A DNA stretch of 64,000 bases. Source: Centroscyllium fabricii. Taxonomy: Eukaryota. Below the pieces are notes generated by a model that did no database searches, had not been told where the DNA came from, and saw only the letters and a list, made by a program, of their open reading frames with translations. Location of the stretch: contig JBNRSN020000017.1 in assembly GCA_051313645.2 (NCBI GenBank), positions 32,922,001-32,986,000 of the forward strand, given 5' to 3'. Made by a program: the position numbers and the translations under genes. Position 1 is the first letter of the stretch. Each line of letters begins with the position of its first letter. Below, piece after piece: positions 10,806 to 52,092 of the stretch.

Positions 10806-11498
10806 TTAGCACAATGTATTGTTGAAAGGTGTGGCTGGTCCTTCTGATCTTGGTAGGCCTGGTAAGGTCATTAAACTTTTTCCACCACTGAATTGTGATG
10901 CGTACAATGGTCAGGTTTGTTTGTTATCGGCCTGGCCACCTCCTGCCACTCCCTTTGAGGGCCTGACTCCATTTGTGCGCAACAAAGCCTCCCTCCACTG
11001 GCGGACACCCTGGAGAAACGCTTGCACAGTTTTGTCTCTGAACCTGGTGCTTTGGGCCGTCCACCAGACCTCACTGAGGCTCTTCAAAGAAGCCAGCTCT
11101 TTGTTCTGCAGCCAAAAAGTCTTTTTGTGTTGTGGCCCTTTTAAGCACACTAACTCCTTCCCCCAAATGGCAAGCTCCCAATGACTGGTATCCTAATGCC
11201 AGGAGCTTGCCATTATTATGGTAATTAGCAGGGTCAGTCTATTTCCTCACGCTCTGCCAATTTTCTCCTTGGGAATCTGCCCGCGTGAAAAATTTAGGCT
11301 CTTGTCTCTGGGCAAATAAACAGCAGGAGTTTTAAATACTCCCTATAAGATCCATATCTACTAATTTGCTATGAAGCTAATTCTGAGATGATTGTTAGTC
11401 TCCTTCAGCTGTTGTAGTCCTTATTGCTTAAATAAACAATGTTCTATACACCAAAGGAAATCACAAGATGGTGCATGTCCACCTTTAGTGAATAAAAT

Positions 11499-11778
11499 TG
11501 TGACCGAAATAACGACCTCGTGGACGAGTAGTTAAGAGGATGAAACAATTCGGCTTTTATTCACTAAAGGTGGACATGCACCAGCTAGTCGACCGTCCCC
11601 AGGAATGGCAGGGGGAAGGGAGATGGCCGCTTATGTACCTGGTCCCGGGAGGGAGGAGTCACAGGCGGGGCCAGCATGGGCATGTCCAGGTAATCGTACA
11701 CAGTGAACTATAATACAACATGGTGAATAGTACGATTACAACGATACATATATATACATAAAAGAGTGGTTTACCACA
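11499..11778 (-). mobile_element. Solo LTR (Gypsy-like)
   Basis: On the - strand TGTGGTAAACC...CGGTCACA with AATAAAA ~60 nt before the end; no TSD seen. Confidence 0.55.
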
Positions 11779-12712: not shown

Positions 12713-13153
12713 CAGGTTGAAGACCGTTAATCCGTTACCCGAAAAACCGGCAGCTTCAGTCGTCCGGCATAAATTGCCCCGACTGCCCTGTGCATGCGAG
12801 AAATGGCCGCCGCAATTGATGCTTCGGCGAATGATCTGCGCATGCGCCGCCGGCCGAATGGCGAGCGCATGCGCAGACCATTCAAAACTTCCGGTGGCCG
12901 TTTTGAATGATCTGCGCATGCGCTCGCCATTCGGCGGCGCATGCGCAGACCATTCAAAGCTTCATGGCAGCCATTTTAAATGATCAGCGCATGCGCTCGC
13001 CGTTCGGCGGCACATGTGCAGATCATTCAAAGTTTTGCGGTGGCCATTTTGAATGCTGTGCGCATACGCCGCCGTGGCTTCAATCATTCGGCGTTTTCAA
13101 CATTCCGGTAGGGTGCTGATCCCGACCCTACCAGATTAACAGTGTTCAACCTG
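12713..13153. mobile_element. Tigger/pogo-like MITE with GCGCATGCGC repeats
   Basis: CAGGTTGAAGACCGTTAATC ... GATTAACAGTGTTCAACCTG|TA; related to 40431-40785. Confidence 0.8.
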
Positions 13154-13342: not shown

Positions 13343-13670
13343 CGCAAAATACTGCGGGTGCTGGAAATCCAAAATAACAACTAAACTCAGCAGGCCAGGC
13401 AACATCCGTGGAGAGAGAAATAGAGTTAACGTTTCGGGTCGAAACCCTTCTACAGAACTGAGAGAAAAGGCAGGAAATGAAACAAAAGGCAGTTTGGGGG
13501 CTGGGAAATGGAAGAGGGGATGAAAGAAGAGACATTAAGAGATATTCAAGGTGAGACGAGATAGAATAGGACAGGTAAAAAAACAAACAATGGCTCTGGA
13601 TGAAGTGTGAAATGCGCTGGCAGAGTGAAAGACAGCTGCCATGTGGAGGAGAGAGAGAAAAAAAAGGAAA
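13343..13670 (-). mobile_element. Penelope-like element 3' region (family 2)
   Basis: AAAATACTGCGGGTGCTGGAAATC...AGAGTTAACGTTTCGGGTCGAAACCCTT; homologous to 62708-63176, which adjoins a GIY-YIG C-terminus. Confidence 0.75.
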
Positions 13671-14742: not shown

Positions 14743-15855
14743 ATTATTTTTTTTAAATATTTTCAGCTATTGCACCATAGAAGTATAAATTAAACATGCA
14801 CATCTGTACATTGGACCTCACGCTCTGTTGGGAACATTTCAAGGTGCCTAGTCAATAAGTTATGCATACTTCAAAAGAGAGAAACAGAATCATATTAGGA
14901 TGTTAATTCTTTTTCCTAATTCCCCCCACCACCGCCCGCCCCCCCACCTCCATCCACCACCACGAGAAAAAGTTTTCCTCGTTGTTCTCTCCCTGCGAGA
15001 AATACTTTTCATTCAAGTGCAACCCAGATTCTTCCCCCAAACCATCCCCGAGTTCCCATAGCTCAAGACAAACAAGTCAGCAAACACCAATTCCCAGCCC
15101 TCAAACAAACCAGGGCACCAGTCACAAACAGCCACAACTGTAGAGATGGTGGCTAAAGCAAACAAGAGGTCACAGGAGATGGAAAACTGCAGCTGCTGTA
15201 GCAGAGAGGAAGATTAGGACAATACACTGAGTACTTAATGTCTCTTGAGACACAAGGTGGGAGGTCAAAAATCATTAACACTCACTCCATGAATTAACAT
15301 AAAGGTCATTGTTACAGTACACTTGCTGATGTAAGCAAAGTGAGGGAATGGGCCCAGTGCCACGTTGAGTGTTTCGAAAAAGTGTTTTTTAACAAGCCTA
15401 AAGTACAGTTGTGGTTACAACACTTCCAACACTGGAAGCTCTTAGTATTTTTTCATAAATGTAATTAATTTAGAAAATCAGCTTCCATAAATACTTCTAA
15501 AAAGGTAGAAAGTTGGTATTTGCCATAACTAGATCTGACTGATGCACTAAATAAAACCTTTGACAAAGTACAAATTTTCACTAAGAAGCTCGCCCTTGTG
15601 CTCGTCAACAAATGCTTCCCAGCAATAATTAAGCCATTTTCTTTGAGAATGAAAATTTGAAATTTTATATATCAAATGTATGTTTCAGCTTTATGCACGT
15701 CTTTACCTTTTTCTTATCCTCAGTTCCTCCCTTCATCCCTCTAAAAACCACTATGCTTCCATCTTTTTCTGACTTATAGCATTTTCTGCGATCACCATGA
15801 ATGATAAACTAACATAAGGCAACAGAAGGCACAGGTACAGCAAGAAGTGACAATA

Positions 15856-16214
15856 CAGGTAGACAATCCTTTATCCGAAACCCTCTCGGATTTCGGATTT
15901 TTTCAGTTTTCGGATTTCCGTGTTGACGGCCCAGTGCGCAGGTGCGGAATGGCGCTCTGCGCATGCGCAGGCGCATTGCCGTGTTGGCGGCCCAGTGCGC
16001 AGGCGCAGAACGGCGCTCTGCGCCATCCTCTGAAATGGAAGCGACGCTCCCAGGAGGCGGTAGGAGATTGTGGGCTCGGGGAGGAATTGTACCCGCGGGT
16101 GGGCTGGAAACCCGATGTAGGCCTCCGGCCCCGATTAGATTTAGATTTGTGCTCCGAAACGTTTTTCGGTTTTCGGAGCTTTTCGGTTTTCGGGAGTTGC
16201 GGATTGTGTACCTG
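15856..16214. mobile_element. Tigger/pogo-like MITE
   Basis: TA|CAGGTAGACAATCC ... GGATTGTGTACCTG|TA; subterminal TTTTCGG repeats. Confidence 0.8.
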
Positions 16215-16607
16215 TATTCGTTTTTCCTCTCTAGAATTGGACTTCCCGCCATTGCATAGAACTTTATCTTGTGGACAAGCCAAGGAACTTGTTCTCGCTG
16301 GCAGCACTTGGACTCGATGGACAGGTAAGCACTGGACTCAAACCTATAGTCATCCAAATACCAGGCAATTGGTGTACTGCCTGCAGTACGCTCCTGCGAA
16401 ATGACTCTTCTGCGCTTATATTTCAAATAGTTGTTCTTCTTTCTGTAAATGCAAAATAGAAGAAACCTTGTAAATATTTCCTTTCCAGTTACATGACGCT
16501 GCCTTGTACAATCACTTCTGTAAAACCAGCCAATGTAAAGTCTAAAGTCACCCATGGTGATAAAGTCACCTAGCTGAGCAGTCCTAGAAATCAAACACCC
16601 AACCATA

Positions 16608-16987
16608 CAGGTTGAGCACCGGTGATCCGGCACCCTCGGGACCAGGCCGGTGCCGGACCACTGAAAATTCCGAACCACTGAAGGTTCGGGTAGAACGCAC
16701 GGGTAGAACACTCCCCGGGGCCCGGAGCACGTGGGTAGAACACTCCCCGGGGCCCGGAGCACGCGGGTAGAACACTCCCCGGGAGAGAGCCCGGGGATAG
16801 AACACTTCCAAGCCTTAAAAAAACAGAAACCCAAACGCCCGATGCCTTCGGCGCTCGCCCACCCTTCGCGGGAAATGGTGGCGCCGCCGAGCGGTTGCTC
16901 CGCAAACCAAAGACCGCCAGTTTCGATTCGTGCCGGACCACTGAAGGTGCCAGACCATCGGGCGCCGGATTACCGGTGCTCAACCTG
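16608..16987. mobile_element. Tigger/pogo-like MITE with internal ~32-bp tandem repeat
   Basis: TA|CAGGTTGAGCACCGGTGATCCGGC ... GCCGGATTACCGGTGCTCAACCTG|TA; GGGTAGAACACTCCCCGGGGCCCGGAGCAC units at ~16687-16807. Confidence 0.88.
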
Positions 16988-19202: not shown

Positions 19203-19731
19203 TATGCTGCTTGTACAACTGTGCTGGAGTTTTGGGGAAAAAATGGTGGATTGTATCTGAGTGTAAGTTTTTTTTTAAAAACACAAAGCCCCATGAATTG
19301 TTAACTTCCGACACTTTAGGGGCTGACAATTCCTCAATTGCCTGGGGTCTAGTTTGTAGCCTCGTTTTTTTTTTTTTGCTGAATCAGAATTTGATTAATT
19401 TTGCTATGTTAAAGAAAAGGTTTATTTTTGGATTCAATTGGGGGCTGGTTTGGTGTTTTCTTTCTGGCCTTGCGATAGTTTTTGCACCCCCCCACCAGAT
19501 CTGCAGCAACAGGCAGAAACGACTGCTGCAGAGTTCACATGTGGTGCAATTTGCAGCCCTCAGATGAGACGCTGACTTATTTTTTTTCAGATCCTCAGGA
19601 GGTACAACTGCAGTTTGCAAACATAAATGAAAAAGAGAATACTGGAAACGCACAGCTGGTCAATCAATCAGGGTTTTGCTTTTAATTGACTGGACAGCTG
19701 TGCATTTCCAGCATTTTCTTTTTGTTGCAAT

Positions 19732-23466: not shown

Positions 23467-23792
23467 TTCAATTCAATTCAATTCAATTCAAGTTGTATTG
23501 TCATTGCAGAGTACTAGTACAACACAACGAGACGAAGACTCGACGCTCCCGAGAGTAGTGCAAATAAATTATATGCAAATTGCATACAGTAAAGTACATT
23601 ATCAGGCGTGCAGGTACCGGAGTTTATTTTTAGAGTTCAGGAGGCTGACAGCCCTGGGGAAGAAGCTGTTCTGAAATCTAGTCGTGCGGGTGCGAATTGA
23701 TCTGTAGCGTCTCCCGGAGGGCAGGGGGGCGAACAGACTGTGGCTGGGGTGTGTGGGGTCTTCAATAATGTTCAGAGACCTCCGTAAGCACT
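23467..23792 (-). mobile_element. Rex1/Babar LINE 3' fragment
   Basis: DPTHPSHSLFAPLPSGRRYRS; (TTGAA)n tail. Confidence 0.88.
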
Positions 23793-25179
23793 TGCTAGTC
23801 TGCTGTACCTTCAACACCAACACATTCACTCCCTGGCCTCATGGCTTTGCTTATTAATCGTTAATTGACTGACGTGTCAATAATGGGGCTGAACCTACAT
23901 TAAGTACGCATTAATATCCTAAACAGTGGAAGCCTAGAAAACATGCATTATTGAGAAGGCTTATTTTTCTTCGAACTCCTTTTATCTTTCTCGTGTCTGT
24001 TTTATTGTTCCGGCCTTTTGCTCCATCAAGGATTCCCACCTTGTGCACCCCACCCTCACACGGGGCTGGGCTGCAAACGGCGCATGCGCAACCTCACCTC
24101 TTGCCCTCTTCCACCTCCCAGAATAAGTTGCCCAGAAAATAAAGCAACCCTGACCAAACGATACAACATATCACAGATCACCAGGCGGCAGGCAGACACA
24201 TCCCATTCCGTCACTCTCCTGCTGCTGCTCCTAATAATTGAATCTGTTCTTTCACATAGACCCATTCTTTCAATGACCAACCGAAGTCCTTGCTATTTCA
24301 CTTTCTTTTCGACTTGGTTATTCCTTTTTTTTGGCGGAGTTTCTGGTCTATTTCGAAACATGCCGGCGTGACTGATTACTGAAATGCAACCCAAACATGA
24401 TAGCGCTCTGAAAAAATCTTGACAGATTGCATCGAATCAGTTGTGAAAACACTTTTCAAATGCACTATTTTTTCGGCTGGCTCAGGACGCTTGCGAGCCG
24501 AGTTCGGCCCGTAGCGAGGGAAGGTTGCTGCTACCTTGGGAGGAAGAGATGGGCCAGCTAATGGTCTCTGGCACTTCTCAGTTTGTGCGGAGCGGGAAAA
24601 GGTTGCCAGTGTTTTCATTAGATTTGCTCAAACAAAAAGAAATAGATCTGAGTGTTGGAGCTAAACCTCACGACGTGCACAGTTGCAGACTGACCCGAAA
24701 TTTACCAGCGGTGCTGTGCATGTTTGCCTCTGCTGGGTTTTTATTGTGATTCACTTATAAGTTTCTAACTTTCTTCACAGATTATTTTCAGGATACCTCT
24801 CGTGCCTTCAACAGAAGTCAAATGAAACAACGGGCATCAAAGTAAAGTGAATTGATGTCATTGTCAGGGAAGTCTCATCTTGCCCCTGGTGTGCGCCCTC
24901 TGCTTATTCAAGGGTTGTCGCGGGCTTCCAGATTGTTCGCGCCTTTTGCTGTGGGGCCACCGACCGACACTTTCCACAAAGTATTTCTCGATAAATTCAA
25001 GACAAAAAACCAGCCATAAAACGGCGAACGAGCAGCATTCACACATCCAGTGTGCAATTCGGCCAATGCTGAAATCAAACAAAAAATTGGGCTATTCTCT
25101 GCACAAACACGTGGAAGATGAAAACGCAACACGTTGTCAAATAAACTCCCACGTGTTTGGGAGAATTGTTGTTTTAAAT

Positions 25180-25679
25180 GCAAGAAGTCACACAACACCA
25201 GATTATAGTCCAACAGTTTTATTTTAAATCACAAGCTTTCGGAGCGTTCGCCCCTTCGTCAGGTAGAAACAGAGACTGACCTAAAGAAAACACATATTGT
25301 TTTAAATGGTGTGGGCTTTGAACCAGAAGGTTGACCTGACTGATCCGTCTTAGTCTTGTAACGAAAATCCTTTTTTTTTAAATCATTCTGTGTGTTTTCA
25401 CAGACACAAGACTGCAACATTTGACCCTTTGTGACTATACCTCATTGATCTCAGACTGATGCCTGATTAATATGTTAAAATATGTTGAAACACCTTTGTC
25501 TGCTCTGTGTGTCTGTGCTGAGGTGTGATGTGGGAGAGATGAGATTGCTCTCTCCCTGGTATATATGTGCTGTCTTCAAATTAACCTCTCTTTCACCTGA
25601 GGAAGGAGCAGCGCTCCGAAAGCTTGTGATTTCAAATAAAACTGTTGGACTATAACCTGGTGTTGTGTGACTTCTTACA
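25180..25679 (+). mobile_element. Penelope-like element (family 1) 3' end with an inverted partial copy
   Basis: 25360-25679 matches 59535-59836; 25180-25265 is an inverted copy of the terminal ~85 bp, an arrangement typical of Penelope insertions. Confidence 0.8.
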
Positions 25680-27724
25680 TGAGTGAGTGGGGAGGAGAGG
25701 GTGGGGGGCACTCGTTTAATTACGCGTTCATTAATGAGGACAACAAATGGAGATTAGGAATGGCAGCGAATATATAAATAAACTTGCGGGCTCGGGGGCA
25801 CCGAGATAATAACGAAAATGGTCTGTATGTATTTTTGAGAAGTCCCTGTTTCGTTTTAAGCTAGTGTTGGCATATCCCCCATATAGTATTTCAGGTTCAT
25901 TTCAGCAGGAGCGCTGACATAACGTAAATAAACAAATGTTAACAAGCAGCAGAAGACAAAAAACTCCCCCCACCCCCTCCACACACCCTGCAAAACACAG
26001 GACGCGTGCTTTGAAATGGATTTGGCCAGGGACATCTGAAAACCATTACAATTTCGAAGCCCCCAATTAGCTCAGGTGGCCGCAACCACACGCGCTGCCC
26101 ATATTACACCCAGGAATTATATTTCCACAACTTTAGAAAACAAAATAAATAGCCTGACTGCATAACAGATTTGTGGTAACTTGGCGAAAGCGGGACTCCA
26201 CTGGGCGACTGCGTGCTTTTGGAAACCCGAATCAAATGCTAACAGTATTTTCTTTTAATCGATGAATAATGCAATATTGTCCGCGTGTTCTAAATTGGAA
26301 ACCGTATTGTTGTTATGATCTTCTATGTTGCTTTGAAATGCCCCTTGTTTTAATCTGTGTTACGAGGGGGGGAGACTCGTTGACAGGTAGTCCATGTGTC
26401 GCCAGTGTCTCTGTGAAATGCCACAGTCCCCATTCGCTCCCAGTCCCCTGGCTTTTCACAGTCGCACTAAAGTCACTGTAACAAGCAGAAATGTTCAGAG
26501 AAAAATCACATCACCATTCCCAGGGGTGTGTGGACACGACTCGGCAATACAGTTCATTCGACGTGGAGCACCAGAAATTGTAACGGGAGCCTGTCCTTGC
26601 TGAACAGTAAAGAATTGCTTGGTGCAATTATTCTAGGAGTATAAAGTAGGGATGGAACTGACAAGAACAACAAAAGTAACACCGTTCGCGCTGTGATTTT
26701 TCGGCGCAGTTCTTGCTCGGGTATAATTCTACTGCACGACAGGCGGAAGCGGAATCCTGGTGTAAAATATCAAATACTGTACCTATTTGCCTCTGCGACT
26801 CGTCCTGGTTAACAGTGCATCTCCAAACACACGCTAAAAGCAGCTAAGACACGGGACGGGCAGGGGTCGGGGTCTTTATTGTGATCCTGCACAGCCACAG
26901 CACTTCAATACTCGGGTGCAGATAAACACCAAAGCAGAATTTTACCCCAATAAACACCTATTTTTAACCAGGGTTATTTCTGCGTAACGTGTTGCATGGT
27001 GTGCATTAGAAATAGTTCAGAAATCGGTTTAATTTTAGTTGCTTTCCCAAACCACGAATGTTCTCGACCTTAATCTCTATAGAGTCTCTCTCTCTCTCTC
27101 TCTTTGACCTTTGGACTGAATGTTAAGCTGAAACCTAGTTTCTGTTCGTTTCTCTCTCGGTTTAATACGATATCACTGATTGAAACCTCCCTAATAACAA
27201 TGCTCCCATTGTAAGAGTGTTAACAGTGACTGGACAATTTTCAGAGTCTTCAAGGTGATCCTGCCACGCCGTTTAAGGTGGCTCTGGGTCCAAGTTGTTT
27301 TTGAAACTCTTCCCTAACAGTGAAGCCAATATTTCTCAGACCAGGGCAAGAACCTCCTGAACTGGCTTAAAATGCATCGTATGGCATGCAATCGTTAACA
27401 TAAAGTAGAACTGCTTTGTTGAAATGTCTGGACGAAGTTTTTATCTTGTTGAGAAAGTACAGCCACATTAAATAGAAGGCCAACATTTAACCCCTTGTCC
27501 GGTTAGTAATTATATAATTTGTTATATTTTAAATGGACATTCGGAAAGGATGGGGTGATGTAACCGCCACACGGAAACAAAAAAATGTGGAGACTGGACC
27601 AGGCAAATATCTTCCAGTTTATATGCAACTTTTCACACAGTAAATGCAATAAGATCGACCCAATCTGGGCTGAGCAGGAGCTGGTTTTGAAAAAGAGTCG
27701 AACAAAACAATTATAAGGATGATA

Positions 27725-27860
27725 GCAAAATACTGCAGATACTGGGAATCCGAAATAATAACAGAAGACGCTGGAAAAACTCAGCAGGCCAGGCAACATC
27801 GGTGGAGAGGGGAATTTCGAGTCGACGTTTCGGGTTAGGGCCCCTTGCCAAGACTTTGTC
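27725..27860 (-). mobile_element. Penelope-like terminal fragment (family 2)
   Basis: AAAATACTGCAGATACTGG...GAGTCGACGTTTCGGG. Confidence 0.7.
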
Positions 27861-30800
27861 AAGGATGAACTCGGGATAAAGTTGTTCTGTGAGCAAGCGG
27901 TCTTATCTGAGGTGTTCGAAACAGAAATCAGCTGGAGAGGTGCACGACACTTTAAAGATCTCTTTTGACTACCTTAAAAAGAAATCCTGCACACACTATC
28001 AAAGTAGACCGAATCAAAAGTGAGGAGATTTTATTTTCTCTGACGTGAATGCTGCACAGTTTACGGCTCTGCCTATTACATCAAAGCACATGTCAAATGT
28101 TTGTGTTGTGTCTGACTCATAAAACATATTTATACAGGCTCTTCAAAGCTCCCGACGGTTTTAAAGACAAACAGGTTCGCTGTCAAAGATGCCCTGTCAC
28201 TCATTCAACTCCCCGGGCATGCGCAAGAAGGGGGCTCAGCCTCTGGTACTGAACACGATGAAACTGGATGTCGCTTTACTGTTTCCTGTGCCTCGCATTT
28301 CCTATGTGTGAACGGCAGCAACCACGTTTCATTTCTGACAATCAATATTTGTGAAGACCGATGCCGTTTTAATGTTAACTGCTGTCAGCCTTTGCTGCAT
28401 TCATATTCCACGAATCTGACTCGACCCTGGAAGTCCATAGTTCTTGATCTTCTTGGCCTGTTGCTCATGAAATGAAAAAAACGAAATTCATTTCCATAAA
28501 TGACGTTAGCTGTGTACCTTGCCATTCACGATTGTTCCTCCCATTGCTTTCCACTCTGTTACATTGTTGTAAACTCCTTCACGGTGGGTCTCCCAGACTT
28601 TCATCCCTGCAAAAAATCGCACTTAACTGTACAGTAAATGTTGAAAAACCTCAGTCTCGTTCTTAGAGAGCTAAACAGTGTGGATTACGTTGTGTGAATC
28701 TTAACTTCAGGTAGCAATCTCCAAGCAACCGCACAATCATACGAAGGACAGAATTAATCTGGCAGCACACAGGAACTTAAAATCACCGTCCTTTGTGCAA
28801 AGTTGGTGTTAAATGTTATTTTCTGTCAATTTAATACTAAATGCATTTATTTCGTTGATGTTAAATAATAATAGAATGACTGGAAATCGCTCGTTATCTG
28901 TATGCGTGTTTCTTGAAATAAAGCATGATAAAACCTCCGTTATCTTTCGAGATTTTATTGGCCGATCACTCACCTCTGTCCTCTCAGGTTGACACTGAGG
29001 AGGGTGATGAATGTGTGTATTTCCAGCGCGCGGTTGTCACTTTTTACAGAAATGAGTGTATCAACTCGAGAATGTTCAGGATTGATATGATTATTGCCCC
29101 CATCCATCCAGACACGATTTGATTGATGGCGATTTTGCAAAATTGACAACATCCGTAAAAGGGGCCACCACAGGTTTGGGGGGTTGTGTAACCCAATTGA
29201 TCTTACCCCCCCCCCCCCAAAAAAAAAACATGTGCCGCACATGGATAACAAAACGACAACTGGGAAGAGATTTATTGCAAACGCCTGTACATACAAATGA
29301 GGCTGTTTTGAAAATACTCCCTGAATCCGTATTTCTAAAATTTGACAGGATTATAAAAAGTGAAAAATTCTGTCTCGAACAAATTTAGGCAGAAGCGATA
29401 TAAAGATAGCAAAGGTGAAACTGACTATTGTAATTACAATAACGAAAATACTACTCGCCGAATTAGGGCGTTGTGGTCAATTTAATTTTAGATAAGCATC
29501 ATTGTGATCTTTGGCCCATATCGTCTTACTTTATTTTTAATTAACCCCTTAAAAGTAAAGCATTCTGTGACATGGTAAAGTAATAAAGCCCCCCCCCCCC
29601 CCCTTAACATATTGTATCTGTGGTTATTTCATAAGTTATCAGAGAAAAAACTTGTTGAGTTCATTCCAGTACATGCAAGATTGGTCAGGCGAGCCAACAG
29701 TTGCATTTAACTAGACTTGCAGCAGACAAGACAGAGAACTGACTGACTCTGTCATGACTTAATATGCAACGACTATAATTGCTTTCTGTTAAGCAGCTTG
29801 CATCGATCAGAACATCGCGGCTTTATATCTCTACACCACTTAGTCGCGTGTTTCAAAAATGCAAAGATGTACTTTAAATGTTGGTTGTGTTTATATTTTA
29901 AAAACGGTGCCAGTAAAAACAAAATACATTCTGAGGTTTGTTGCATCCTTAGACGCTTGCCGATGTTTTATCGAGGCTTAAATAATTCTTTCTTTTAACA
30001 GATATTTCGGGTGGTTGGACGTGAACTTTGAGATTTAATGAACTATTGAAAAAAACGAATGCATTGCAAGTGACATCGGAGTACTGCATTTCAGTGATAC
30101 CAAATTCAATTATAATTTCGCAAGCAAAATATGGAAAGTCAGAGCGAGTGGGTTCAGTCACTTGCAATGCAGAGTGACAAGGCACATTATAATGGAATAT
30201 AAATTCACCTTTCATTTCTTGCTGGGGAAATTGCAAGATTGGCGACCCCTTTCTTCTGCATTTATTTAAATGGGGTTTTTTTTTCATCCTAAATGTTGGC
30301 TGTGGAGACAAAATAAAATCTTTTCTCGGAAATGTCATTAATGTTGGGCTTTAAGGCAGATGCTCAACAAAAAGACCCCGCAGCGAGAAAAAGAATAAAA
30401 GTGTGCTCACTTTCTTGTTAAAACGAGTGAAGCATATCTCGGAGGGCGTTAATTCCTCGTGTTGTGATTCCTCTATCGGTCAATGCTAGCTGACACAGTC
30501 ACACTCTCGCCTGCCTCACACTCCCGACAAGGATGAGTTGGGAAAAACTTTGCTGAAGTTTTTTGGGAACGTGGCGCCACCTCTGGTTGCAATAAAGTAT
30601 TGCAACCCCCCAAAGTTCTGGATTCACGAGTCTATTTACAAGGCGTTATCTCCAACAAAGATAAACAACAGTCATTAATGAGATAATTAAGGCGATTTTT
30701 TTTTTCACGGTCGGTATTACTTAAGGGGAGGCACTCGTCAATTCCACAAACTCGTGCCGGCAAGACGATCGTTCGTAAGCGTCAAGCCATAAAATGAGTC

Positions 30801-32396
30801 ACAATGGTTTTATGATGTATATTTCCCATATCGTTCAAAGTAAACCTCATGCAATACAAATTATTTGTGTGAAGTTCCACCGTTGCAGAACGGATCTTAT
30901 CGGAACGAAATTAAGTTAATTCAACTTTCTTTATTTCCTTGAAGGCGCATTTGGGAGGTTTTATTATAATATATTTTTGACATCGATCAGAGGACATTTG
31001 GAGTGCCTTTTGGTCAGCGTGTGCTGCCATTTCACACTTATCCCCCAAAAATGGATTGAAACAGATCTCAATTCGAAAATAAGAGCGGCGCGAAGAGGTT
31101 TAGGAGCTCGACGATTTAAAAACAATCAAACTCTTGACAAGAACTTCCGAGAAATAAGTAAAGAGTGCCCGCTGTATTTCTGGAATGTTTTTTTTTAAAC
31201 TATTCTTATTACGAAAAGCAAAAAACAATTGTTGCCGAGAAGGCGTTCAGTCACAACATCCAAAAGACCCATTAAAGTCATTATTAACGTGTCCTGAATA
31301 TTAACAACTCTCATTAAAGTGACTAATTTACTTAGCTCCGTGAAAACTGCAATTAAAATCCCAAAGAATAGTGTTCAAGCAGACATGTTAATCAGGATTT
31401 AGTGTTCCTGTCTGCAATAGCTATATATTTGACCGAAAAATACCTCCATATGTTTTATCAAGGATGGACTGAACGCGAATACAATGTCATTATTATTATT
31501 AGGAGAAGGTTATGCCAAATACTGCCTGGGAGTGTTCTTATCTGCAATTATTACTAATTGCAATTTACAGAAAATTGCATTAAGATTCGCGTTTCATCTG
31601 AAACCAACAATATATGTGTGGGGGTGGGTTTGGAGAGCGGCAGAATCCAACTGCAGCTCCGCATCACACCGAGGGCAAAGAAAGCCTGGATTATTTTCCA
31701 CATTAAACCCCCACGGAAGGATTCCCCAAATCCAACAGTGTTTGGATTCATCGCAGGACAAATATGCACCCATCGCCTGAGCAGCACAACTTCACAGGTC
31801 ATTGCTTTCTGCTGAGCGCCGCCAGCTTCCCCACTGAAGGTAACTTGCTCACTCTGTGTGTTATTTAGGTCCTTACAAATATTGATTTACCACATCAGGT
31901 TTTTAAAAAATATATATTTTGTTGCAAGCAACTTTTTTTTGGGGGGGGGGGTTACCAAAACTGGGAGAGAGCGCGCAATTGGATTGCTTCAGGCTGTTGA
32001 ATCAGCACCGTCTCCAGCACTTTGTAACAAAACCTGTGGATCAGACATTTTAACAGGATTGAGATACAATGCGAGAGACAGAAGTAACTCATTGGGGAGG
32101 GGGAGGACCGGGGCATTTTTTTTTGTGAACAAATCCGCACACATGCCACTAAAGGACACAAACTGCGCCTGTGTGTGTGTTCAGCACTCAGACACATCCA
32201 TGTTACTGAAACATGCAGCCAGCTCGCAACTTGCAGACACTGTCAAGTGGGCGCGTTAAGAAAGGATGCTGTCACTGCCAATGTGCAATAATGGCCTAAT
32301 ATAACTGCATCCAGGCAGCAAGTATTTCCTGATTTTTATCTTCGCGTTGCTGCTGACATTTGAAATCTGCTCGATTGTGCAATTTGATTTATATAT

Positions 32397-32603
32397 AACT
32401 AAATGTGTAATGAAAGTTGGGCCATGGTTGTCCTGAGTTCTGATTTCTCCCTACTGAAAGATGCCCAGCAGAGAGGCTCAATCAGTCGGACTGTGGCGGA
32501 TCGCCACAGTCCGACTGATTGAGCCTCTCTGCTGGGCATCTTTCAGTAGGGAGAAATCAGAACTCAGGACAACCATGGCCCAACTTTCATTACACATTTA
32601 GTT
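32397..32603. repeat. Perfect inverted repeat, 102-bp arms, 3-nt spacer
   Basis: 32397-32498 is the exact reverse complement of 32502-32603; spacer GAT. Confidence 0.98.
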
Positions 32604-33070
32604 GTCCTCCTCACACGAGTCTCAACGCTGATGGCCAGACCCCCAAAACGCAAAGCCGGAGCGCCGGACCGCCTAAATAATGCCCACCTTCGTCTCTGGC
32701 GTTTCATTATTCGGCACCGAGGAACTTTTGCCTGTGCCAACTAATCGCAAGCAGGGGCATCGCCCGATTGATGGTGACTGGAGGGGATTTGATTAGGTCG
32801 AGCCGGCTGGCGTTCTCGCAGTGAGAATAAAGTCTGCACTTGGCATCGCCAAAAACAAGCGAAACTCTTAAAATCGCCCCCCTCCCTCCCCAAAGTTTAA
32901 ACTGCAGCTGGAACGGGGAAAACCAAAGCCACATTCAAGAGGGAAAGTGTTTCAAAAACAGCGGCGCAGACTTTCTCCAAGTAACTGCACCAACTTCACC
33001 CTCCCGACGCTCAACTATTTCCTGTTTACAAAATAACGCGGCTTCCAAATGAAACACACGCCATGTGCAG

Positions 33071-33105
<35 letters not shown>

Positions 33106-33289
33106 AACACCACAGTAAAAGCAGAAGGAGGCTGCTGCTAAAGCTACCGGTATCTGTCGCTTTATCTGATTACATCAGTTCAAGTCAAGAAAAAAAAATT
33201 GGGAGTTCAAATCTGATCAAATCTTGGGTTTCTCAGCTGAGCTGAGATTTCTTTCCCCCCCCCCTCTCCCCCGGGCTGGACTCCTCCCA

Positions 33290-33400
33290 GAACCCGCCCC
33301 CTGAACTTTGAGCCAATCGCACAGATGCGAACCAGTAGGCGGTTTGTTCCGATTGGCGCCTGCTAGTTTATGCCTCTGTATTGAGCAAGTCAAATATACT
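33290..33400 (+). promoter_or_regulatory. sox9 proximal promoter
   Basis: GC box CCCGCCCC (33293), CCAAT (33313) and inverted ATTGG (33352) ~250-300 bp before the ATG; twin CCAAT boxes are known from mammalian SOX9 promoters; TSS position inferred. Confidence 0.7.
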
Positions 33401-33599
33401 CAGCAAACAGCCCGAGTTGCAGCAACAGAGCCACTTGGTTACAACTCGGAGCGGATTGGCAAGTTTCTCCGCTCAGACACACACACACAGACACAGAGAG
33501 ACACACAGAGAACACATTCAGCGAGTTCTCCACCCCTGCTACCATTTGATTTCCTTCCAGTTTTGCCTTGTGCAGTCCGCCTCTTCTTTTTGTTTTTGC

Positions 33600-34033
33600 A
33601 TGAATCTCCTCAACCCCTTCCTGAAAATGACAGAACACGAAAAGACGCTCTCCGACGTGCCCAGCCCCACCATGTCGGAGCAATCGGCCGATTCGCCCTG
33701 CGGATCCGGGGCTGGCTCGGACGCCGAGAACACCAAACCCGGCGAGAACGGTCAGGACGAGCTGTGCGCCCCGATTCTGGACTCCAAGAAAGAGGACGAC
33801 GACAAGTTCCCGGCCTGTATCCGGGAGGCGGTGACCCAGGTGCTGAAAGGATACGACTGGACCCTGGTGCCCATGCCCGTCCGTGTCAATGGCTCGTCCA
33901 AGAACAAACCTCACGTCAAAAGACCCATGAACGCCTTCATGGTCTGGGCTCAGGCTGCCCGCCGAAAACTGGCCGACCAGTACCCCCATCTGCACAACGC
34001 CGAACTCAGCAAAACCCTGGGCAAGCTGTGGAG
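33600..34033 (+). CDS. sox9: SRY-box transcription factor 9, exon 1
   Basis: [12 protein letters not shown]...; dimerization domain [24 protein letters not shown]; HMG box start [21 protein letters not shown]; donor AG|GTGAGT. Confidence 0.97.
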
Positions 34034-34125
34034 GTGAGTGACCCTGACTTTTGTGTGACTTCTTGCATTTGTCCACCCCAGTCCAACAGCGGCAGCTCCA
34101 CACCCTGACTTTGCACATTGCATCT

Positions 34126-34298
34126 CAGTCAAGTTTAGCAAAAAGGCAGATTGGGGAAGGTGGTCAGTGTTGTGCTCGTTGTGCATCTGTTCAACAAAAA
34201 AAAAACAATATTCCCCAGTCAAGTTTAGCAAAAGGCAGATTGGGGAAGGTGGTCAGTGGCTCGTTGTGCATCTGTTCAACAAAACAAAACAATATCCC
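34126..34298. repeat. ~90-bp tandem duplication in sox9 intron 1
   Basis: CAGTCAAGTTTAGCAAAA(A)GGCAGATTGGGGAAGGTGGTCAGTG... begins at 34126 and again at 34216. Confidence 0.92.
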
Positions 34299-35206
34299 CC
34301 CCCCCCCCCCTGTTCCTAAATAATATGCATGAATTATTTCATGTGCAACGCATGGGATTTTTTTCTCTCATTCAGAATGAATGGTTTGATCTTTGATCGA
34401 TGCAGTGAAGCACATCGAGAAAAAGGCATTCTTCCTGGGTTAAAGCAGATCTTTGCGCGCTGGCTTGTTTGTATCTGAAGTAGTTTGGATGCAGAGGGAC
34501 ATTTTTTTGGTTTGTTGTTGCCCGTCTTATCGTGGAAAGAAACACGCGTGGAAATGAATGCATTTGAGTGCAAGACTCGAACGTCAAACGATGCAGAAAG
34601 AGTTAGCTCGCAGAATGCAACCAAACCAATCCTCACATTTGAGGCCAGGAAAGATTTCGAGAATGTAACAACTTCACCGCAGACGGTGCTTTGCCTGGAT
34701 CTAGTGGGGGGGGGGGGGGGGAGCTGTGCAAAAAGCAAAGGGTTTCAGGCGCGTTTTATTCCTGGTGAAAGTTGGTGCGTTGTCTGCTCAGGGGGAGGGT
34801 TGGACCTCAGAACGAGTTTGGTTGGTTTGAGAGAGATTTTCTCTTTCTCTCTCAGTCCCAGTTGAACCTGTCTTGGCCGCGCGGTAACTGGAAAAGGAAA
34901 CTTGTCAACACACACACACACAAAAAAAATCGATCCGATCGAATTCCTTCACAGTTCATTTAGCCCAGCTCCAAACCGGCTTTGGCTGAACGTGTCCAGA
35001 CACAAACCTGGGGATCCGCCTGAGCTGACTGGCTCTGGGATAAACGCAAAAGTTTCAAGAGAGTTTGGGGAATTCTGCAGAAACTGATGCCACCAACACG
35101 GTGCTGAAGCTGGCCGCTGTAGATTTGATTTTAAATCGGGAAGTATTGTTATTAATATACATATATTTATTTATTAATTTTGTTTTGTTTTCCGGGTTGG
35201 CTGCAG

Positions 35207-35460
35207 ATTGCTCAACGAGGGCGAGAAGCGCCCCTTCGTGGAGGAAGCGGAACGGCTGAGAGTGCAGCACAAGAAGGATCACCCCGACTACAAATACCAG
35301 CCCCGGCGGAGGAAGTCGGTGAAGAACGGCCAGGGCGAAAGCGAGGAAGGGGCCGAGCAGACTCACATCACCCCCACCGCCCTCTTCAAAGCCCTGCAGG
35401 CCGACTCTCCGCGCTCCGCCTCCAGCATGAGCGACGTGCATTCTCCCGGAGAGCATTCAG
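35207..35460 (+). CDS. sox9: sox9 exon 2
   Basis: Acceptor CTGCAG|A; [39 protein letters not shown]...SPGEHS; donor CAG|GTAAAG; phases consistent. Confidence 0.97.
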
Positions 35461-35591
35461 GTAAAGGGGGGCAGAGAGCTGGACACAAGTGGTCGAGGCT
35501 TGAGCTAACCGGGGACAAAAGCGAAATGCATTCTGTCTTGATAAGTTGCTAACTTTTTTTTAAATTAAAAACATTGAGAAGTGACAACAGT

Positions 35592-35812
35592 GAATGCTGG
35601 AAAAAAAACTCAGCAGGCCAGGCAACATCCTGGAGAGAAATAGAGTCGACGTTTCAGGCTGGGACCCTTTATCAAGACTTGACAAAGTCTTGACAAAGAG
35701 TCCTAACCCGAAATGTCGACTCTATATGTCTCTCCACGGATGTTGCCTGGCCTGCTGAGTTTTTCCAGCATTTTCTGTTGTTATTTCAGATTTCCAGCAT
35801 CCGCAGTATTTC
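35592..35812. mobile_element. Inverted pair of Penelope-like termini in sox9 intron 2
   Basis: ATGCTGGAAAAA..CTCAGCAGGCCAGGCAACATCC (left) versus GGATGTTGCCTGGCCTGCTGAGTTTTTCCAGCAT (right). Confidence 0.8.
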
Positions 35813-36031: not shown

Positions 36032-36762
36032 GACAATCTCAAGGACCACCGACGCCTCCCACCACTCCCAAGACAGAAGTCCAGCCTGGGAAACCTGATC
36101 TGAAGCGTGAAGGTCGCCCCCTGCAGGAAGGAGGGAGACAGCCTCACATTGATTTCAGCAATGTGGACATTGGCGAACTCAGCAGCGAGGTCATGTCGAA
36201 CATGGAGACGTTCGATGTCAACGAGTTTGACCAGTACCTCCCGCCCAACGGCCACCCGGGAGTTCCAGTCACCCACGCCAGCCATGGACAGAGCGCTCAG
36301 GCCACCTACACAGGCAGCTATGGGATTAGCAGCACTTCGGGCAGCCAAGCCGCCCACCCTTGGTTGTCCAAGCAGCATTCCATGACGAGCCTCGCCGGCG
36401 AGCCGGGACAGCAGCAGAGGACACACATCAAGACAGAGCAGCTGAGCCCTAACCACTACAACGAGCAGCACTCGCCCCAGCAGATCAACTACAGCTCCTT
36501 CAATATGCAACACTACAGTTCATCTTACCCGTCCATTCCTCGTACCCAGTACGAATATTCAGACCACCAGAATACCAATTCCTATTACAGCCACGCTGCG
36601 GGGCAGACCACAGGCCTGTACTCCACCTTCACCTACATGAGTCCATCCCAGCGCCCCATGTACACACCCATTGCAGACACCACGGGAGTCCCTTCCATCC
36701 CCCAAACCCACAGTCCGCAGCACTGGGAGCAGCCAGTCTACACACAGCTGACCAGACCTTAA
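36032..36762 (+). CDS. sox9: sox9 exon 3
   Basis: Acceptor TTCAG|GA; [14 protein letters not shown]; K2 domain [27 protein letters not shown]; IKTEQLSP; C-terminus [13 protein letters not shown]. Total CDS 1419 nt = 472 aa. Confidence 0.97.
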
Positions 36763-40180: not shown

Positions 40181-41004
40181 AAAGAAAGACTTGCATTTAT
40201 ACAGCGCCTTTCACGACCACCGGATGTCTCAAAGTGCTTTACAGCCAATGAAGTGCTTTTGAAGTGGAGTCACTGTTGTAATGTGGGAAAACACGGCAGC
40301 CAATTTGCGCACAGCAAGCTCCCACAAACTGCAATGTGATAATGACCAGATAATCTGTTTTTGTTATGTTGATTGAAGGATAAATATTGGCCAGGCCACG
40401 GGGATAACTCCCCTGCTCTTCTTCGAAATACAGGTTGGGCCCCGTTAATCCGGCACCCAAAAAACTGGCAGCTTCAGACGTCCGGCAAAGATTTCCCCGA
40501 CTGCCCCGCGCATGCGCAAAATAGCCGCCGTGTGTGGCTGTGCATACCTGGGCCTCCCCGACTGGTCTGCGCATGCGCAACATGGCCGCCACGCTTGGCC
40601 GTGCATGACCGGGCCTCCCCGAACGATTGATGCTTCAGCGAGCGCAGGCGCAGACCATTCAAAATTTTGCGGTGGCCATTTTGAATGGTCTGCGCATGCG
40701 ACGCTGAAGCTTCAATCATTCGCCGTTTTCAAAAATTCGGCACGGTGCTGGCCCCGACCGTGCCGGATTAACGAAGCTCATCCTGTAGCACCCTGGGATC
40801 TTTTACATCCGCCTGAGAGAGCAGACAGGGGTCTCGGTTTAACATCTCTTCCGAAAGACGGCACCTCTGACAGTGCAGCACTCCCTCAGCACTACACTGG
40901 ACTGTCAGCCTAGCTTTATGTGCGCAAGTCCCTGGAGTGGGATTTGAACCCACAACCTTCTGACTCAAAGGCAAGTGTGCTACCAACTGAGCCACAGCTG
41001 ACAC
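40181..41004 (-). mobile_element. SacSINE1/DeuSINE-like SINE, interrupted by a MITE
   Basis: L2-type tail (AAAGACTTGCATTTATACAGCGCCTTTCACGAC), Deu-like core (GGTTTAACATCTCTTCCGAAAGACGGCACC), tRNA-like head on the - strand. Confidence 0.8.
40431..40785. mobile_element. Tigger/pogo-like MITE
   Basis: TA|CAGGTTGGGCCCCGTTAATCCGGCAC ... GTGCCGGATTAACGAAGCTCATCCTG|TA; the host SINE resumes after the TA. Confidence 0.88.
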
Positions 41005-48205: not shown

Positions 48206-51076
48206 CTACTGTTCCTTCCCCTCCATGTACCTGTCTATCATCCTTTTAAAAGCACCCAGACTGTCCGCATCCACTATTTCAGATGGTAGCCTATTCCATT
48301 CCCCTACCACTCTCTGTGTAAAGAACCTGCCCCTGCCATCCCTTCTGAATCTTCCTCCTTGAATCTTGTGCTCGTGTCCTCTTGTTGACGTTCTTCCCGC
48401 CCGGGGAAACAGTCTTTGCACGTTTACTCTATCGATCCCCTTCATCATTTTAAACATCTCTATCAAGTCCCCTCTCTTCCTTCTCCGTTCCAGGGAGAAG
48501 AGTCCCAGCTCCCTCAACCTCTCCTCGTATGACCTTCCTCCCATTCCCGGCAGCATCCTGGTGAATCTCCTCTGCACCCTCTCCAGCGCCTCCACATCTC
48601 TCCTGTAGTACGGTGCCCAGAACTGCACACAGTACTCCAAGTGTGGTCTCACCAGTGACCTGTACAGCTGTAGCATGACCTCCCGGTTCCTAAACTCTAT
48701 TCCCCTGTTGATGAAGGCCAATACCCCATAGGCCTTTTTCACTGCTTTGTCCACCTGGGTGGCAGCCTTCAGTGATCTGTGTACATATACTCCCAGATCC
48801 CTTTGCTCCTCTGCTTCCCTCAGGATTCTGCCATTGACCCTATATTCCCTCTTCCTATTTGCCCTGCCGAAGTGCATCACCTCGCATTTCCCCGTGTTGA
48901 ACTCCATCTGCCATTCTTCAGCCCAGCTCTGCATCCTGTCTATATCCCTCTGAATCTTTCTACCTCCTTCCTCCTCATCCACTTCTCCCCCTATCTTTGT
49001 GTCGTCCGCAAACTTGCTGACCCACCCCTCAGTCCCCTCCTCCAAGTCATTGATGAAGATTACAAACAGTAGTGGCCCCAACACCGACCCCTGTGGTACC
49101 CCACTGGTGACCGGTCTCCAGCCCGAGTATTGGCCATCTACCACTACCCTCTGCTTCCTTTGAGCCAGCCAGTTCTCAATCCATCCCACCACTTTGTTGC
49201 TTACCCCGCATCTCCTTACTTTCCTCATAAGTCGATCGTGCGGGACCTTGTCGAACGCCTTGCTGAAGTCCATATATATGACATCAACCGCCTTTCCCTC
49301 ATCCACACTCCTGGTCACCTCTTCAAAGAATTCTATCAGGTTGGTCAGGCACGATTTGCCCTTAACGAATCCGTGCTGACTGCTTCTGATTAATTCGCCC
49401 CTGTCTAGATGGTCGTAGATCCTGTCCTTCAGGACCTTTTCCATCACCTTTCCGACCACTGAGGTGAGACTGACTGGTCTGTAGTTCCCTGGCGCGTCCC
49501 TGCTCCCCTTTTTAAATATGGGAGCCACATTCGCCTCTCTCCAGTCCTTAGGGACTATCCCCGAGGATAGCGATGATCTAAAGATAGAGGTCAGTGGCTC
49601 TGCGATTTCTTTCCTCGCCTCCCAGAGAATCCTTGGATAAATCCCGTCCGGCCCAGGAGATTTGTCTACCTTTAGTTTCTCCAAAATTTCTAATACCTCC
49701 CCCCTCTGAATATTTACTTCCCCCATCTTTTCCCCTTGTATCTTGAGCTCCCCCTCTGCTTTTAGTTCCCTCTCCTTTGTGAACACGGACGCAAAATATT
49801 CATTTAGTGCTTCCCCAATTTCCTCTGGCTCCGTGCACATTTCTCCGTTGCTGTCTTTGATCGGCCCTACTTTTACCCTAGTCATCCTTTTATTTCTTAC
49901 GTAAGCATAGAAAGCCTTGGGGTTCTCCTTTATCCTTCCCGCTAATGCCTTCTCATGCCCACCCTTTGCCTTCCTTAGCCCATTCTTCAGTTTTTTCCTT
50001 GCTTCTTTGTACTCCCTTCCCGCCCCCTCTGTACTCTGTTTTCTCATTTTATCATATGCTTCCTTCTTCCTTTTTACTAATTGTTCTACCTCTTTCGTGA
50101 TCCATGGTTCTCTCATCTTACCCTTTCTTCCCATCCTACTCGGGACATGCTTGTCCAGGGCTTTCATAATTTGCTCCCTGAACACTCTCCACTTTTCTTC
50201 CGTTCCTCTTCCCTCAAGTTCCCGTTCCCAATTGGTGTTACCTAAATCGTGCCTAACCCTGTCGTAATTTCCCCTCCCCCAGCTGTATACCTTGCCCTGC
50301 CTCTTGCTCCTATCCTTCTCCATTACTATTGTGAACGTCACCGAGTTGTGGTCACTGTCCCCAAAGTGCTCCCTTACCCCCAGTTCTACCACTTGGCCTG
50401 GTTCATTTCCCAGAACCAGGTCCAACGTTGCACCCCCCCTTGTTGGTTCCTCCACGTATTGTGTCAGGAAACCTTCTTGTACGCATTGTAAGAAACTCTC
50501 TCCCTCTGCACTCCTTGACCTACCTAGATTCCAGTCTATATTAGGGAAATTGAAATCTCCCATTATAACTACCCTCTGTCCCTCACATCTTTCCTTTATT
50601 TGTCGCGCAATTTCCTCCTCCACCTCCCTGTTGCTATTTGGTGGTCTATAAAAGACTCCCACTAGCGTTACCGCCCCCTTCCTATTCCTAAGCTCCGCCC
50701 ATACTACCTCCGTTTGTGTGTCCCCCTCAAAGTTTTTTTCTGTAGCCGTCACGTTGTCCTTGACCAGCAGTGCTACTCCCCCCCCGCGCTTTCCTTCCTC
50801 CCTGCTCCTCCAGAAGCTTCTGTATCCCGGGACCCCAATCATCCAGTCCTGTCCCTGCTCCAGCCATGTCTCTGTAATGGCCACCACATCGAAGTCCCAT
50901 GCCGCCATCCATGCCCCTAACTCCCCTGCCTTGTTCCTTATACTTCTTGCATTGAAGTAGGCGCATTTCAGACCCCTTTCCCTTTCCTTTGCCCTTGGTT
51001 CTCCCCCTTTTTTCTCGTTGTTCCCCGGTCTCCCCTCTGTTTCCCTGCCCGTTTCCCTATCCCCCTGGCCAATTAG
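48206..51076 (-). CDS. CR1 ORF2: APE endonuclease and reverse transcriptase (frame open to 51157; first ATG at 50908 lies inside the EN domain)
   Basis: LKCAYFNARSIRNK, VVAITETW, IMGDFN, GDSDH, KSPGPDG, NYRPVSLTS, YMDFSKAFD, SGVPQGSVLGP, KFADD; no stops. Confidence 0.93.
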   Translation of the reverse strand, partial: LIGQGDRETGRETEGRPGNNEKKGGEPRAKERERGLKCAYFNARSIRNKAGELGAWMAAWDFDVVAITETWLEQGQDWMIGVPGYRSFWRSREEGKRGGGVALLVKDNVTATEKNFEGDTQTEVVWAELRNRKGAVTLVGVFYRPPNSNREVEEEIARQIKERCEGQRVVIMGDFNFPNIDWNLGRSRSAEGESFLQCVQEGFLTQYVEEPTRGGATLDLVLGNEPGQVVELGVREHFGDSDHNSVTFTIVMEKDRSKRQGKVYSWGRGNYDRVRHDLGNTNWERELEGRGTEEKWRVFREQIMKALDKHVPSRMGRKGKMREPWITKEVEQLVKRKKEAYDKMRKQSTEGAGREYKEARKKLKNGLRKAKGGHEKALAGRIKENPKAFYAYVRNKRMTRVKVGPIKDSNGEMCTEPEEIGEALNEYFASVFTKERELKAEGELKIQGEKMGEVNIQRGEVLEILEKLKVDKSPGPDGIYPRILWEARKEIAEPLTSIFRSSLSSGIVPKDWREANVAPIFKKGSRDAPGNYRPVSLTSVVGKVMEKVLKDRIYDHLDRGELIRSSQHGFVKGKSCLTNLIEFFEEVTRSVDEGKAVDVIYMDFSKAFDKVPHDRLMRKVRRCGVSNKVVGWIENWLAQRKQRVVVDGQYSGWRPVTSGVPQGSVLGPLLFVIFINDLEEGTEGWVSKFADDTKIGGEVDEEEGGRKIQRDIDRMQSWAEEWQMEFNTGKCEVMHFGRANRKREYRVNGRILREAEEQRDLGVYVHRSLKAATQVDKAVKKAYGVLAFINRGIEFRNREVMLQLYRSLVRPHLEYCVQFWAPYYRRDVEALERVQRRFTRMLPGMGGRSYEERLRELGLFSLERRRKRGDLIEMFKMMKGIDRVNVQRLFPRAGRTSTRGHEHKIQGGRFRRDGRGRFFTQRVVGEWNRLPSEIVDADSLGAFKRMIDRYMEGKEQ

Positions 51077-52092
51077 TTTAAATCCCCCTTTATGGCCGAA
51101 GCGAGTTTCCCACCCAGAATGCTGATGCCCCTTCGGTTCAGGTGCATGCCGTCCACATCATACCGATCCCACTTTCCCCAGAACGATCCCCAATTGTCCA
51201 CGAATCTCATGCCCTCCCTTACGCACCAATCTTGTAGCCACGCGTTTATTCGCTTTCTTTTTTCATTTTTCCTCCCCCCCTCCCGTGGCACTGGTAGGAT
51301 CCCAGAAATTGTGGCATGATTTGTTTTGCCTCTCAGTTTCCTTCCGAGTTCCTTAAATTCCCTCTTAATGTCTTCCTCTTTTTTCCTCCCTATGTCGTTC
51401 GTACCTATGTGTACCACGACCTGTACCTGTTTGCTCTCCCCGTTTAGAGTGCCGTCAACACGGTCCAAGATGTCTTTGACCTTAGCCCCTGGGAAGCAAC
51501 AAACCATCCTCGAGTCCCTTTTGCTCCCGCAAAACCTCGTTTCCATCCTACTCACCATTGAATCGCCCATCACTATTGCTCTCAGCCTTCCCCCTCCTTC
51601 TTTTTGTACCACCTCTTCTGGTCTGGTCACCGAGTTCTCCTCCTCTCGGTCTCCCCCTGCTCGATCTTCCCCCACTTCATGGTTCAGGACTGTATCCCTG
51701 TTGCCGGGGTGACTGTCCCCTGGGGGCCTCGCCCCATCCTCCCCCTCCCTTCTCTCCGACTCCTGCCTGCCCTTCTGCATGGGTGTATGTACCGTCTCCC
51801 CTGGTTGCTTTGTGCCTCCCTCTGCCTCTTTAATGTTTTTAGGTTCCTCCAGGTTCCTTCCCCTTTCCCCATCCTGGACCTGTTTCTCCTCTGCCTTCCT
51901 CTGGACCTTGAGTTTCTTCAGGTCCTGTTCCAGCCCCCTTACTCTTACTATAAGGCGCTGTAGCTGGTTGCATTTTTTACAAATTCTTCCAGCCTGGCTC
52001 CCCTTCCCCCTCCCCCCTTGGAACATTTTGCAGGAGGAGCATCTTCCCATTTTTCTCATCCATCCCCTCACAGTTCCCATGAAATACTGCAT
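51073..52092 (-). CDS. CR1 ORF1 with N-terminal CxxC motifs, coiled coil and SGNH esterase domain
   Basis: CSSC...CKKC; IVMGDS, CCFPGA, VHIGTND, DGMHLN; ends GDLN*. Confidence 0.9.
   Translation of the reverse strand: MQYFMGTVRGWMRKMGRCSSCKMFQGGRGKGSQAGRICKKCNQLQRLIVRVRGLEQDLKKLKVQRKAEEKQVQDGERGRNLEEPKNIKEAEGGTKQPGETVHTPMQKGRQESERREGEDGARPPGDSHPGNRDTVLNHEVGEDRAGGDREEENSVTRPEEVVQKEGGGRLRAIVMGDSMVSRMETRFCGSKRDSRMVCCFPGAKVKDILDRVDGTLNGESKQVQVVVHIGTNDIGRKKEEDIKREFKELGRKLRGKTNHATISGILPVPREGGRKNEKRKRINAWLQDWCVREGMRFVDNWGSFWGKWDRYDVDGMHLNRRGISILGGKLASAIKGDLN

Follow-up and report, generated by a model that had tools for sequence, protein, structure and literature searches.

A perfect 207-bp palindrome upstream of sox9 in Centroscyllium fabricii and its possible origin by template switching

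How did a long, perfect and nearly spacerless palindrome come to lie upstream of a developmental gene, and does it serve a purpose there? The question is raised by a 64,000-nucleotide stretch of the genome of Centroscyllium fabricii (contig JBNRSN020000017.1, positions 32,922,001 to 32,986,000; referred to as the window, with coordinates counted from its first base). As the original prediction had it, the two arms of this palindrome flank the spacer GAT and are reverse complements of each other without mismatch (102 of 102 positions), making 207 bases in total, and the first base pair outside the arms is a mismatch. The chance expectation for such a palindrome in 64 kb is about 1e-54, and the runners-up among the window's inverted repeats with short spacers have arms of 36 nt, with one mismatch, and of 29 nt, without any. 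The arm is complex in sequence (87 distinct 4-mers out of 99; 48% GC), and the centre is symmetric, with no central mismatch and a spacer of 3 nt, below the limit of about 9 nt that goes with cruciform-forming palindromes. Both ends are abrupt and bordered by unique forward sequence, AT-rich on the left and GC-rich on the right, where it runs on to the sox9 promoter. The parts of the palindrome and its borders are as follows.

32377..32396, plus strand: AT-rich left flank (G/C at 4 of 20 nt), with TATATAT at its end, carrying on the AT-richness of the arm's outer end
32397..32498, plus strand: left arm, 102 bp, with 24% GC in its outermost 17 nt, climbing to 65% in its innermost 17 nt
32499..32501, no strand: spacer GAT, 3 nt, with G/C at 7 of the 9 and 13 of the 19 central nt
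32502..32603, minus strand: right arm, 102 bp, matching the left arm in reverse complement without exception and tentatively read as the copy
32601..32608, plus strand: 8-nt word over the right junction (3 nt of arm and 5 nt of flank), recurring in the left arm at 32427-32434

The gene downstream of the palindrome is, judging by its coding sequence, an intact elasmobranch sox9, a gene known as the master of cartilage formation. It has three exons joined by GT-AG introns, and its spliced CDS of 472 aa contains Sox_N and HMG box domains and no internal stop. In a search with exon 3, the best three of 817 matches among 1567 candidates were the Sox9 proteins of catshark (93%), electric ray (90%) and skate (89%), followed by sturgeon (78%). 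The following features belong to this gene.

33313..33356, plus strand: CCAAT box at 33313 and inverted CCAAT at 33352, presumed sox9 proximal promoter
33600..34033, plus strand: sox9 coding exon 1, with the Sox_N domain and the first half of the HMG box
35207..35460, plus strand: sox9 coding exon 2 of the GT-AG spliced CDS
36032..36762, plus strand: sox9 coding exon 3 up to the stop codon, with Sox9 proteins as its best matches

We take the two CCAAT boxes to mark the promoter from the layout of the mammalian SOX9 promoter. From the end of the palindrome it is 710 nt to the CCAAT at 33313, 749 nt to the ATTGG at 33352 and 997 nt to the sox9 ATG at 33600, which bears out the distances first given (about 700 bp to the CCAAT boxes and about 1 kb to the ATG). 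Two further features of this neighborhood were observed. Intron 1 of sox9 contains a tandem duplication of about 88 nt whose two copies have diverged, with small indels (34126-34300). Upstream of the palindrome, the stretch at 29000-31500 is AT-rich (36-41% GC) and without in-window repeats, and has a high CpG observed/expected ratio (up to 1.37 at 30751-31250); it may be unmethylated regulatory DNA.

By human standards, the palindrome is exceptional. The ten longest perfect repeats reported from the complete human genome (spacer at most 8 nt) have arms of 140, 118, 95, 93, 88, 86, 84, 80, 80 and 80 bp; just two of them are longer than 102 bp, both with 1-2% GC, and in that list none of the ten lies above 37.5% GC (PMC13155455). 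When four mismatches are allowed, 718 human palindromes longer than 200 bp are reported, mostly AT repeats (PMC7680136). The human top ten thus supports, for sequences that are not AT repeats, the earlier statement that long perfect palindromes are rare in vertebrates. For cartilaginous fish, we found no published counts of palindromic or long perfect repeats in the open literature, and the excerpt covered from one further paper mentions neither palindromes nor sharks (PMC5753468). Likewise, none of the matches listed from the open literature describes a palindrome upstream of sox9 in its title or the start of its abstract.

We infer that the most likely origin is template switching, with the mechanism and size range taken from the literature; more specifically, the palindrome is probably, though by no means certainly, the product of a single replication template switch, one that the four-point model classes as 3-2-1-4 or, in mirror image, as 1-4-3-2. 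In such an event, the polymerase would leave its template during replication or repair, copy 102 nt of neighboring DNA in reverse, using as template either the nascent strand, folded on itself at the centre, or the other parental strand, and then rejoin the forward template, perhaps losing some of the original sequence. The layout agrees with this model, in that an exact reverse complement of nearby sequence is present (102/102) and forward sequence resumes after the inverted fragment, as expected of two switches, with unique flanks on both sides. Types 1-4-3-2 and 3-2-1-4, which yield this layout, are reported to make up 31% of 794 high-confidence human-chimp events (PMC5453318). The length of the fragment falls within what has been observed but greatly exceeds the average. 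Fragments copied by template switching have a mean of 11.6 bp, the longest outside repeats in individual persons measure 97-180 bp, and the longest in complex sequence of gnomAD has 90 bp (PMC9435742); in apes, the median is 12 and the maximum 128 (PMC7954356). These events are described as enriched near AT-rich tracts, and the left junction of the palindrome is AT-rich. Perfect arms, abrupt ends, a tiny spacer, complex sequence, and the lack of both a target site duplication (TSD) and a second copy in the window are all consistent with a template switch. Against it stand the 102-bp length, about ten times that of a typical fragment, and the presence of palindromic repeat families of the same size in this genome.

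Snap-back synthesis linked to repair gives the same shape and is indistinguishable here from template switching. Head-to-head ligation at the central GATC is rejected, as one extra G breaks the symmetry expected from ligation. The original prediction of a very recent fold-back duplication stands as regards the fold-back type of duplication, which is the best origin, while its dating does not (see below). The window also contains a second unique inverted repeat at 11469-11583, with perfect 29-bp arms, a 57-nt spacer and no other copy in the window, and this is a further candidate for either a template switch or a small MITE.

If one arm was copied from the other, the base composition of the flanks weakly favors the left arm as native and the right arm as the copied 2->3 fragment. 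We used models of GC continuity based on the GC correlation between neighboring counting windows elsewhere, at five window sizes. A native left arm was favored over insertion of the whole element by ratios of 3.8-14.4, while a native right arm scored 0.3-0.8. In simulations at 20 nt (5000 trials each), the tails were 0.0076 for a native left arm and 0.0012 for insertion (about 6-fold, from about 38 and 6 events per 5000), and 0.005 and 0.0018 for a native left and a native right arm (about 3-fold), in a test that is post hoc, concerns one locus and assumes a small deletion. The simulation thus puts the real strength of this pointer below that of the model ratios, and the pointer is weak. The 8-nt word at the right junction was also considered as the trace of a templated insertion or a chained switch, and is not counted as one, because its P values of 0.028 and 0.097 under two nulls (3000 trials each) are near chance.

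The palindromic repeat families mentioned above also suggest another source, namely a young copy of an unrecognized non-autonomous palindromic transposon of the fold-back MITE type that inserted upstream of sox9. We regard this as unlikely, yet more open than the original prediction allowed, which missed the families of this kind in the window. Imperfect palindromic repeats of like size are present at 35578-35787, 3659-3913, 12829-13073 and 40620-40722, and a family of low copy number would be compatible with what a single 64-kb window contains. Nevertheless, the window holds no other copy of the arm (best blastn match 12 nt, E 0.69; best nhmmer E 3), and none of its 8 other palindromic or TIR-like elements resembles the arm above shuffled sequences, the lowest value being 36 of 200 shuffles equal. 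No TSD of 2-12 nt is found at the palindrome ends or within 5 nt of them, the one exception being a TA that lies within the arms and is for that reason necessarily symmetric. Formally, this TA could be read as a TSD on both sides of an element at 32402-32598, if three flanking bases paired by chance (1/64); we set this aside as the main reading since it needs that chance 3-bp extension of the pairing. Families of MITEs and DNA transposons without TSDs do exist. The identity of the arms also weighs against a transposon, as the 83 repeat pairs of at least 100 nt in the window all stay below 99% identity (98.2% at most, with a median of 89.8%), and at a divergence of 3-5% a match of 102/102 would have a P of 0.045-0.005. 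The GC continuity described above adds about 6-fold against insertion, as a post hoc figure from one locus. Within the window, then, the earlier claims of no TSD, no other arm copy and no likeness to MITE TIRs are upheld. The claim that the surrounding DNA is free of transposable elements holds with respect to in-window repeats only: apart from the palindrome, 27864-34125 contains none at E 1e-5, while repeats cover 22% of the window.

Several of these repeats deserve a description in their own right. The one at 35578-35787 lies in intron 2 of sox9, is a 210-nt imperfect palindromic repeat (82% self-complementary) with 7 blastn matches elsewhere in the window, and belongs to a dispersed family with related pieces at 13383-13449, 19686-19722, 27752-27863 and 62737-62836; it would put an intronic hairpin into the sox9 pre-mRNA. 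The elements at 12829-13073 and 40620-40722 form a GC-rich palindromic family, the former being a tandem array of 3.3 copies of a 73-nt self-complementary unit. A MITE-like element at 25178-25680 has terminal inverted repeats of about 120 nt that are 86% alike, and a shorter relative at 59531-59836.

The palindrome could also be an artefact of assembly or library preparation, either a fold-back chimera that entered the consensus or an imperfect repeat polished to perfection, which we consider improbable. Perfect arms of complex sequence and this length are absent from the human top ten as listed (PMC13155455), fold-back reads are reported to make up about 0.55-0.6% of nanopore genomic data (PMC12870357), and palindromic chimeras arise in whole-genome amplification (PMC6218980). 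However, fold-back reads are described as folding once near the middle of the read, seldom recurring at one site, and being virtually absent from HiFi data (PMC12870357). Here, instead of a single fold without return to forward sequence, two junctions are needed, as the inverted stretch is followed by a return to unique sequence in the forward direction. In addition, the window is without any N, the sox9 frame is intact, and the 3-nt loop is too small for an adapter. In plasmid and phage collections, the palindrome had no match, and hence there is no sign in them of a vector origin.

The absence of any difference between the arms limits their divergence to less than 2.9% (95%). The mutation rate of the epaulette shark is given as 7e-10 per bp per generation (CI 1.4-14.1e-10; PMC10587355). 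With the rate of this one species, the 204 arm bases would on average collect their first change in about 7 million generations (3.5-35 million across the CI), and the 95% bound for unchanged arms would be 21 million generations at the central rate. Inverted repeats can be mutation hotspots (PMC13155455), and later template switches can re-homogenize the arms (PMC5453318). With so long a time to the first change, and with arms that can be re-homogenized, "very recent" does not follow from their identity. Compared by identity with the 83 repeat pairs above, the palindrome is younger or better homogenized than most window repeats.

Its persistence may be explained by slow elasmobranch mutation together with a GC-rich centre, which would slow cruciform extrusion from duplex DNA. 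At physiological salt, extrusion is described as beginning where 8-10 bp open at the centre, with AT-richness there as a prerequisite for extrusion in vivo; the 20 central bp of human PATRRs include 1-3 G/C (PMC1851657). Because its centre is instead GC-rich (7/9 and 13/19 nt), a cruciform switch, as originally proposed, is unlikely and weakly contradicted. The palindrome, with a DNA hairpin of -136 kcal/mol, would rather fold mainly when single-stranded, on the lagging strand or as RNA if transcribed. In yeast, repeats with spacers below 9 nt are reported to form lagging-strand hairpins at which forks are stalled and which are then cut (PMC8053094). Some fragility of the palindrome is therefore to be expected, and there is no guarantee that it would survive for long beside an essential gene. 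The arms in that fork-blocking study were reportedly 320-bp Alu sequences.

Alternatively, the palindrome may be a selected structure kept perfect by recurrent homogenization, either as a 102-bp RNA duplex, which would be a substrate for Dicer or ADAR and would come from antisense transcription running upstream from the sox9 promoter, or as a cruciform that is extruded by promoter supercoiling and tunes sox9. We think this improbable, and for the cruciform route the GC-rich centre disfavors extrusion. For the RNA route, the palindrome lies about 0.7 kb from the presumed sox9 promoter, and the minus-strand RNA of a 321-nt region folds at -232.8 kcal/mol (z -26.7), although a perfect fold follows from any origin. 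The minus strand has no AATAAA or ATTAAA in 31400-33400, which is unremarkable, as 1.3 such signals are expected from the promoter to the palindrome. Bidirectional promoters can serve newly formed hairpins, yet the 102-bp stem and 3-nt loop miss the reported preference of microRNA precursors for 35 bp and a loop of at least 10 nt (PMC10710096). Palindrome breakage in yeast is reported to be promoted by transcription starting near the centre (PMC8053094). The 8 Rfam matches are all rejected as driven by shape, since they fall under their gathering scores (the best, mir-5879, with 49.6 bits versus 97) and the 7 over the palindrome reflect its hairpin shape. The SOX heptamer WWCAAWG is absent from 32300-32700. 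A splice-donor-like word on the minus strand (32614) and two RUNX-like ones (32492, 32508) were likewise set aside, as loose patterns within chance. We give very little credence to the idea of an old regulator conserved among elasmobranchs and kept perfect by repeated template switching, whose antisense-made duplex would be diced or edited, or would set the promoter state, and so tune Sox9 dosage; if true, it would make a long perfect hairpin a cis-regulator of a vertebrate developmental gene and mean that Sox9 dosage is tuned in this way in animals that build cartilage for life.

Overall, the palindrome most likely has no selected role. It may nonetheless cause a small shift of sox9 expression. 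Of two yeast genes tested with repeat expansions in their promoters, GRE2 was reported to rise four-fold and ERT1 showed no effect (PMC13100816), so that a cis effect of the palindrome is possible and not to be assumed. If it is real and lineage-specific, it would be a template-switch product of uncommon length next to a developmental gene that is sensitive to dosage, and would offer a ready natural test of how one-step repeats affect the activity of a vertebrate promoter, an effect shown once in yeast. As an artefact or a transposon it would be ordinary. We also raise, tentatively and with some doubt, the idea that the slow-mutating genomes of sharks and rays keep long perfect palindromes of non-AT sequence that are missing from the human genome; that a single stretch of 64 kb contains two perfect repeats, each of them unique, is a hint of such retention.

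Besides the palindromic elements, the window contains several other repeats. A LINE-like retrotransposon on the minus strand (48206-52092), presumably of CR1/L2-type layout, has two overlapping open frames, of which the first (339 aa) contains a GDSL esterase-like domain and the second (983 aa) an endonuclease and a reverse transcriptase domain. The repeat family at 54598-55305 (copies at 10078-10804, 23467-23790 and 55814-56405) carries a 235-aa frame matching Pfam ALKBH8_N, which we assume to be the tail of a retrotransposon; two of its copies are inverted, 585 nt apart and 94% alike. A 386-aa open frame on the minus strand (15809-16969), with a weak Ty3 peptidase match below the cut-off (E 5.7e-4), is likely a remnant of an LTR retrotransposon. 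Finally, 60370-60546 is a young tandem array of 7.8 copies of a 23-nt unit, with a 96% match.

The palindrome can be compared with five kinds of known inverted repeats. It resembles the palindromic non-autonomous repeats of the window, and MITEs, in its size (within 100-250 nt), self-complementarity and short loop; the window repeats, however, are multicopy and 72-85% self-complementary, whereas the palindrome is perfect, single-copy in the window and unrelated in sequence. Like the human PATRR11, PATRR17 and PATRR22, it is nearly spacerless, and it shares a length of about 200 bp with PATRR17, but these are described as more than 90% AT and as having 1-3 G/C among their 20 central bp (Kogo, 2007, PMC1851657; review, PMC7999016), while the palindrome is AT-rich in neither its body (48% GC) nor its centre (13 G/C in the central 19-21 nt). 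Similar to the microRNA hairpins born of template switches, it is a hairpin formed in one step, close to a promoter from which transcription could come, although its stem is about three times the 35 bp preferred by microRNAs and ends in a 3-nt loop, and it is known from the DNA alone (Monttinen, 2023, PMC10710096). The yeast promoter expansions of GRE2 and ERT1 are also perfect inverted repeats less than 1 kb upstream of a gene; their tested arms are reported as 24-25 bp (48 bp in one strain) with a measured effect, in contrast to the 102 bp of the palindrome, read from its sequence (Rozenfeld, 2026, PMC13100816). With short-range template-switch mutations, it has in common a perfect local inverted repeat with a short spacer and abrupt ends, located in unique DNA without a TSD and with an AT-rich tract near a junction; those described come from apes and humans and average about 12 bp, while the palindrome has 102 bp and is known from one allele (Loytynoja and Goldman, 2017, PMC5453318; Walker, 2021, PMC7954356; Loytynoja, 2022, PMC9435742). 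Among these systems, the palindrome is most likely an extreme example of this last, known mutational product.
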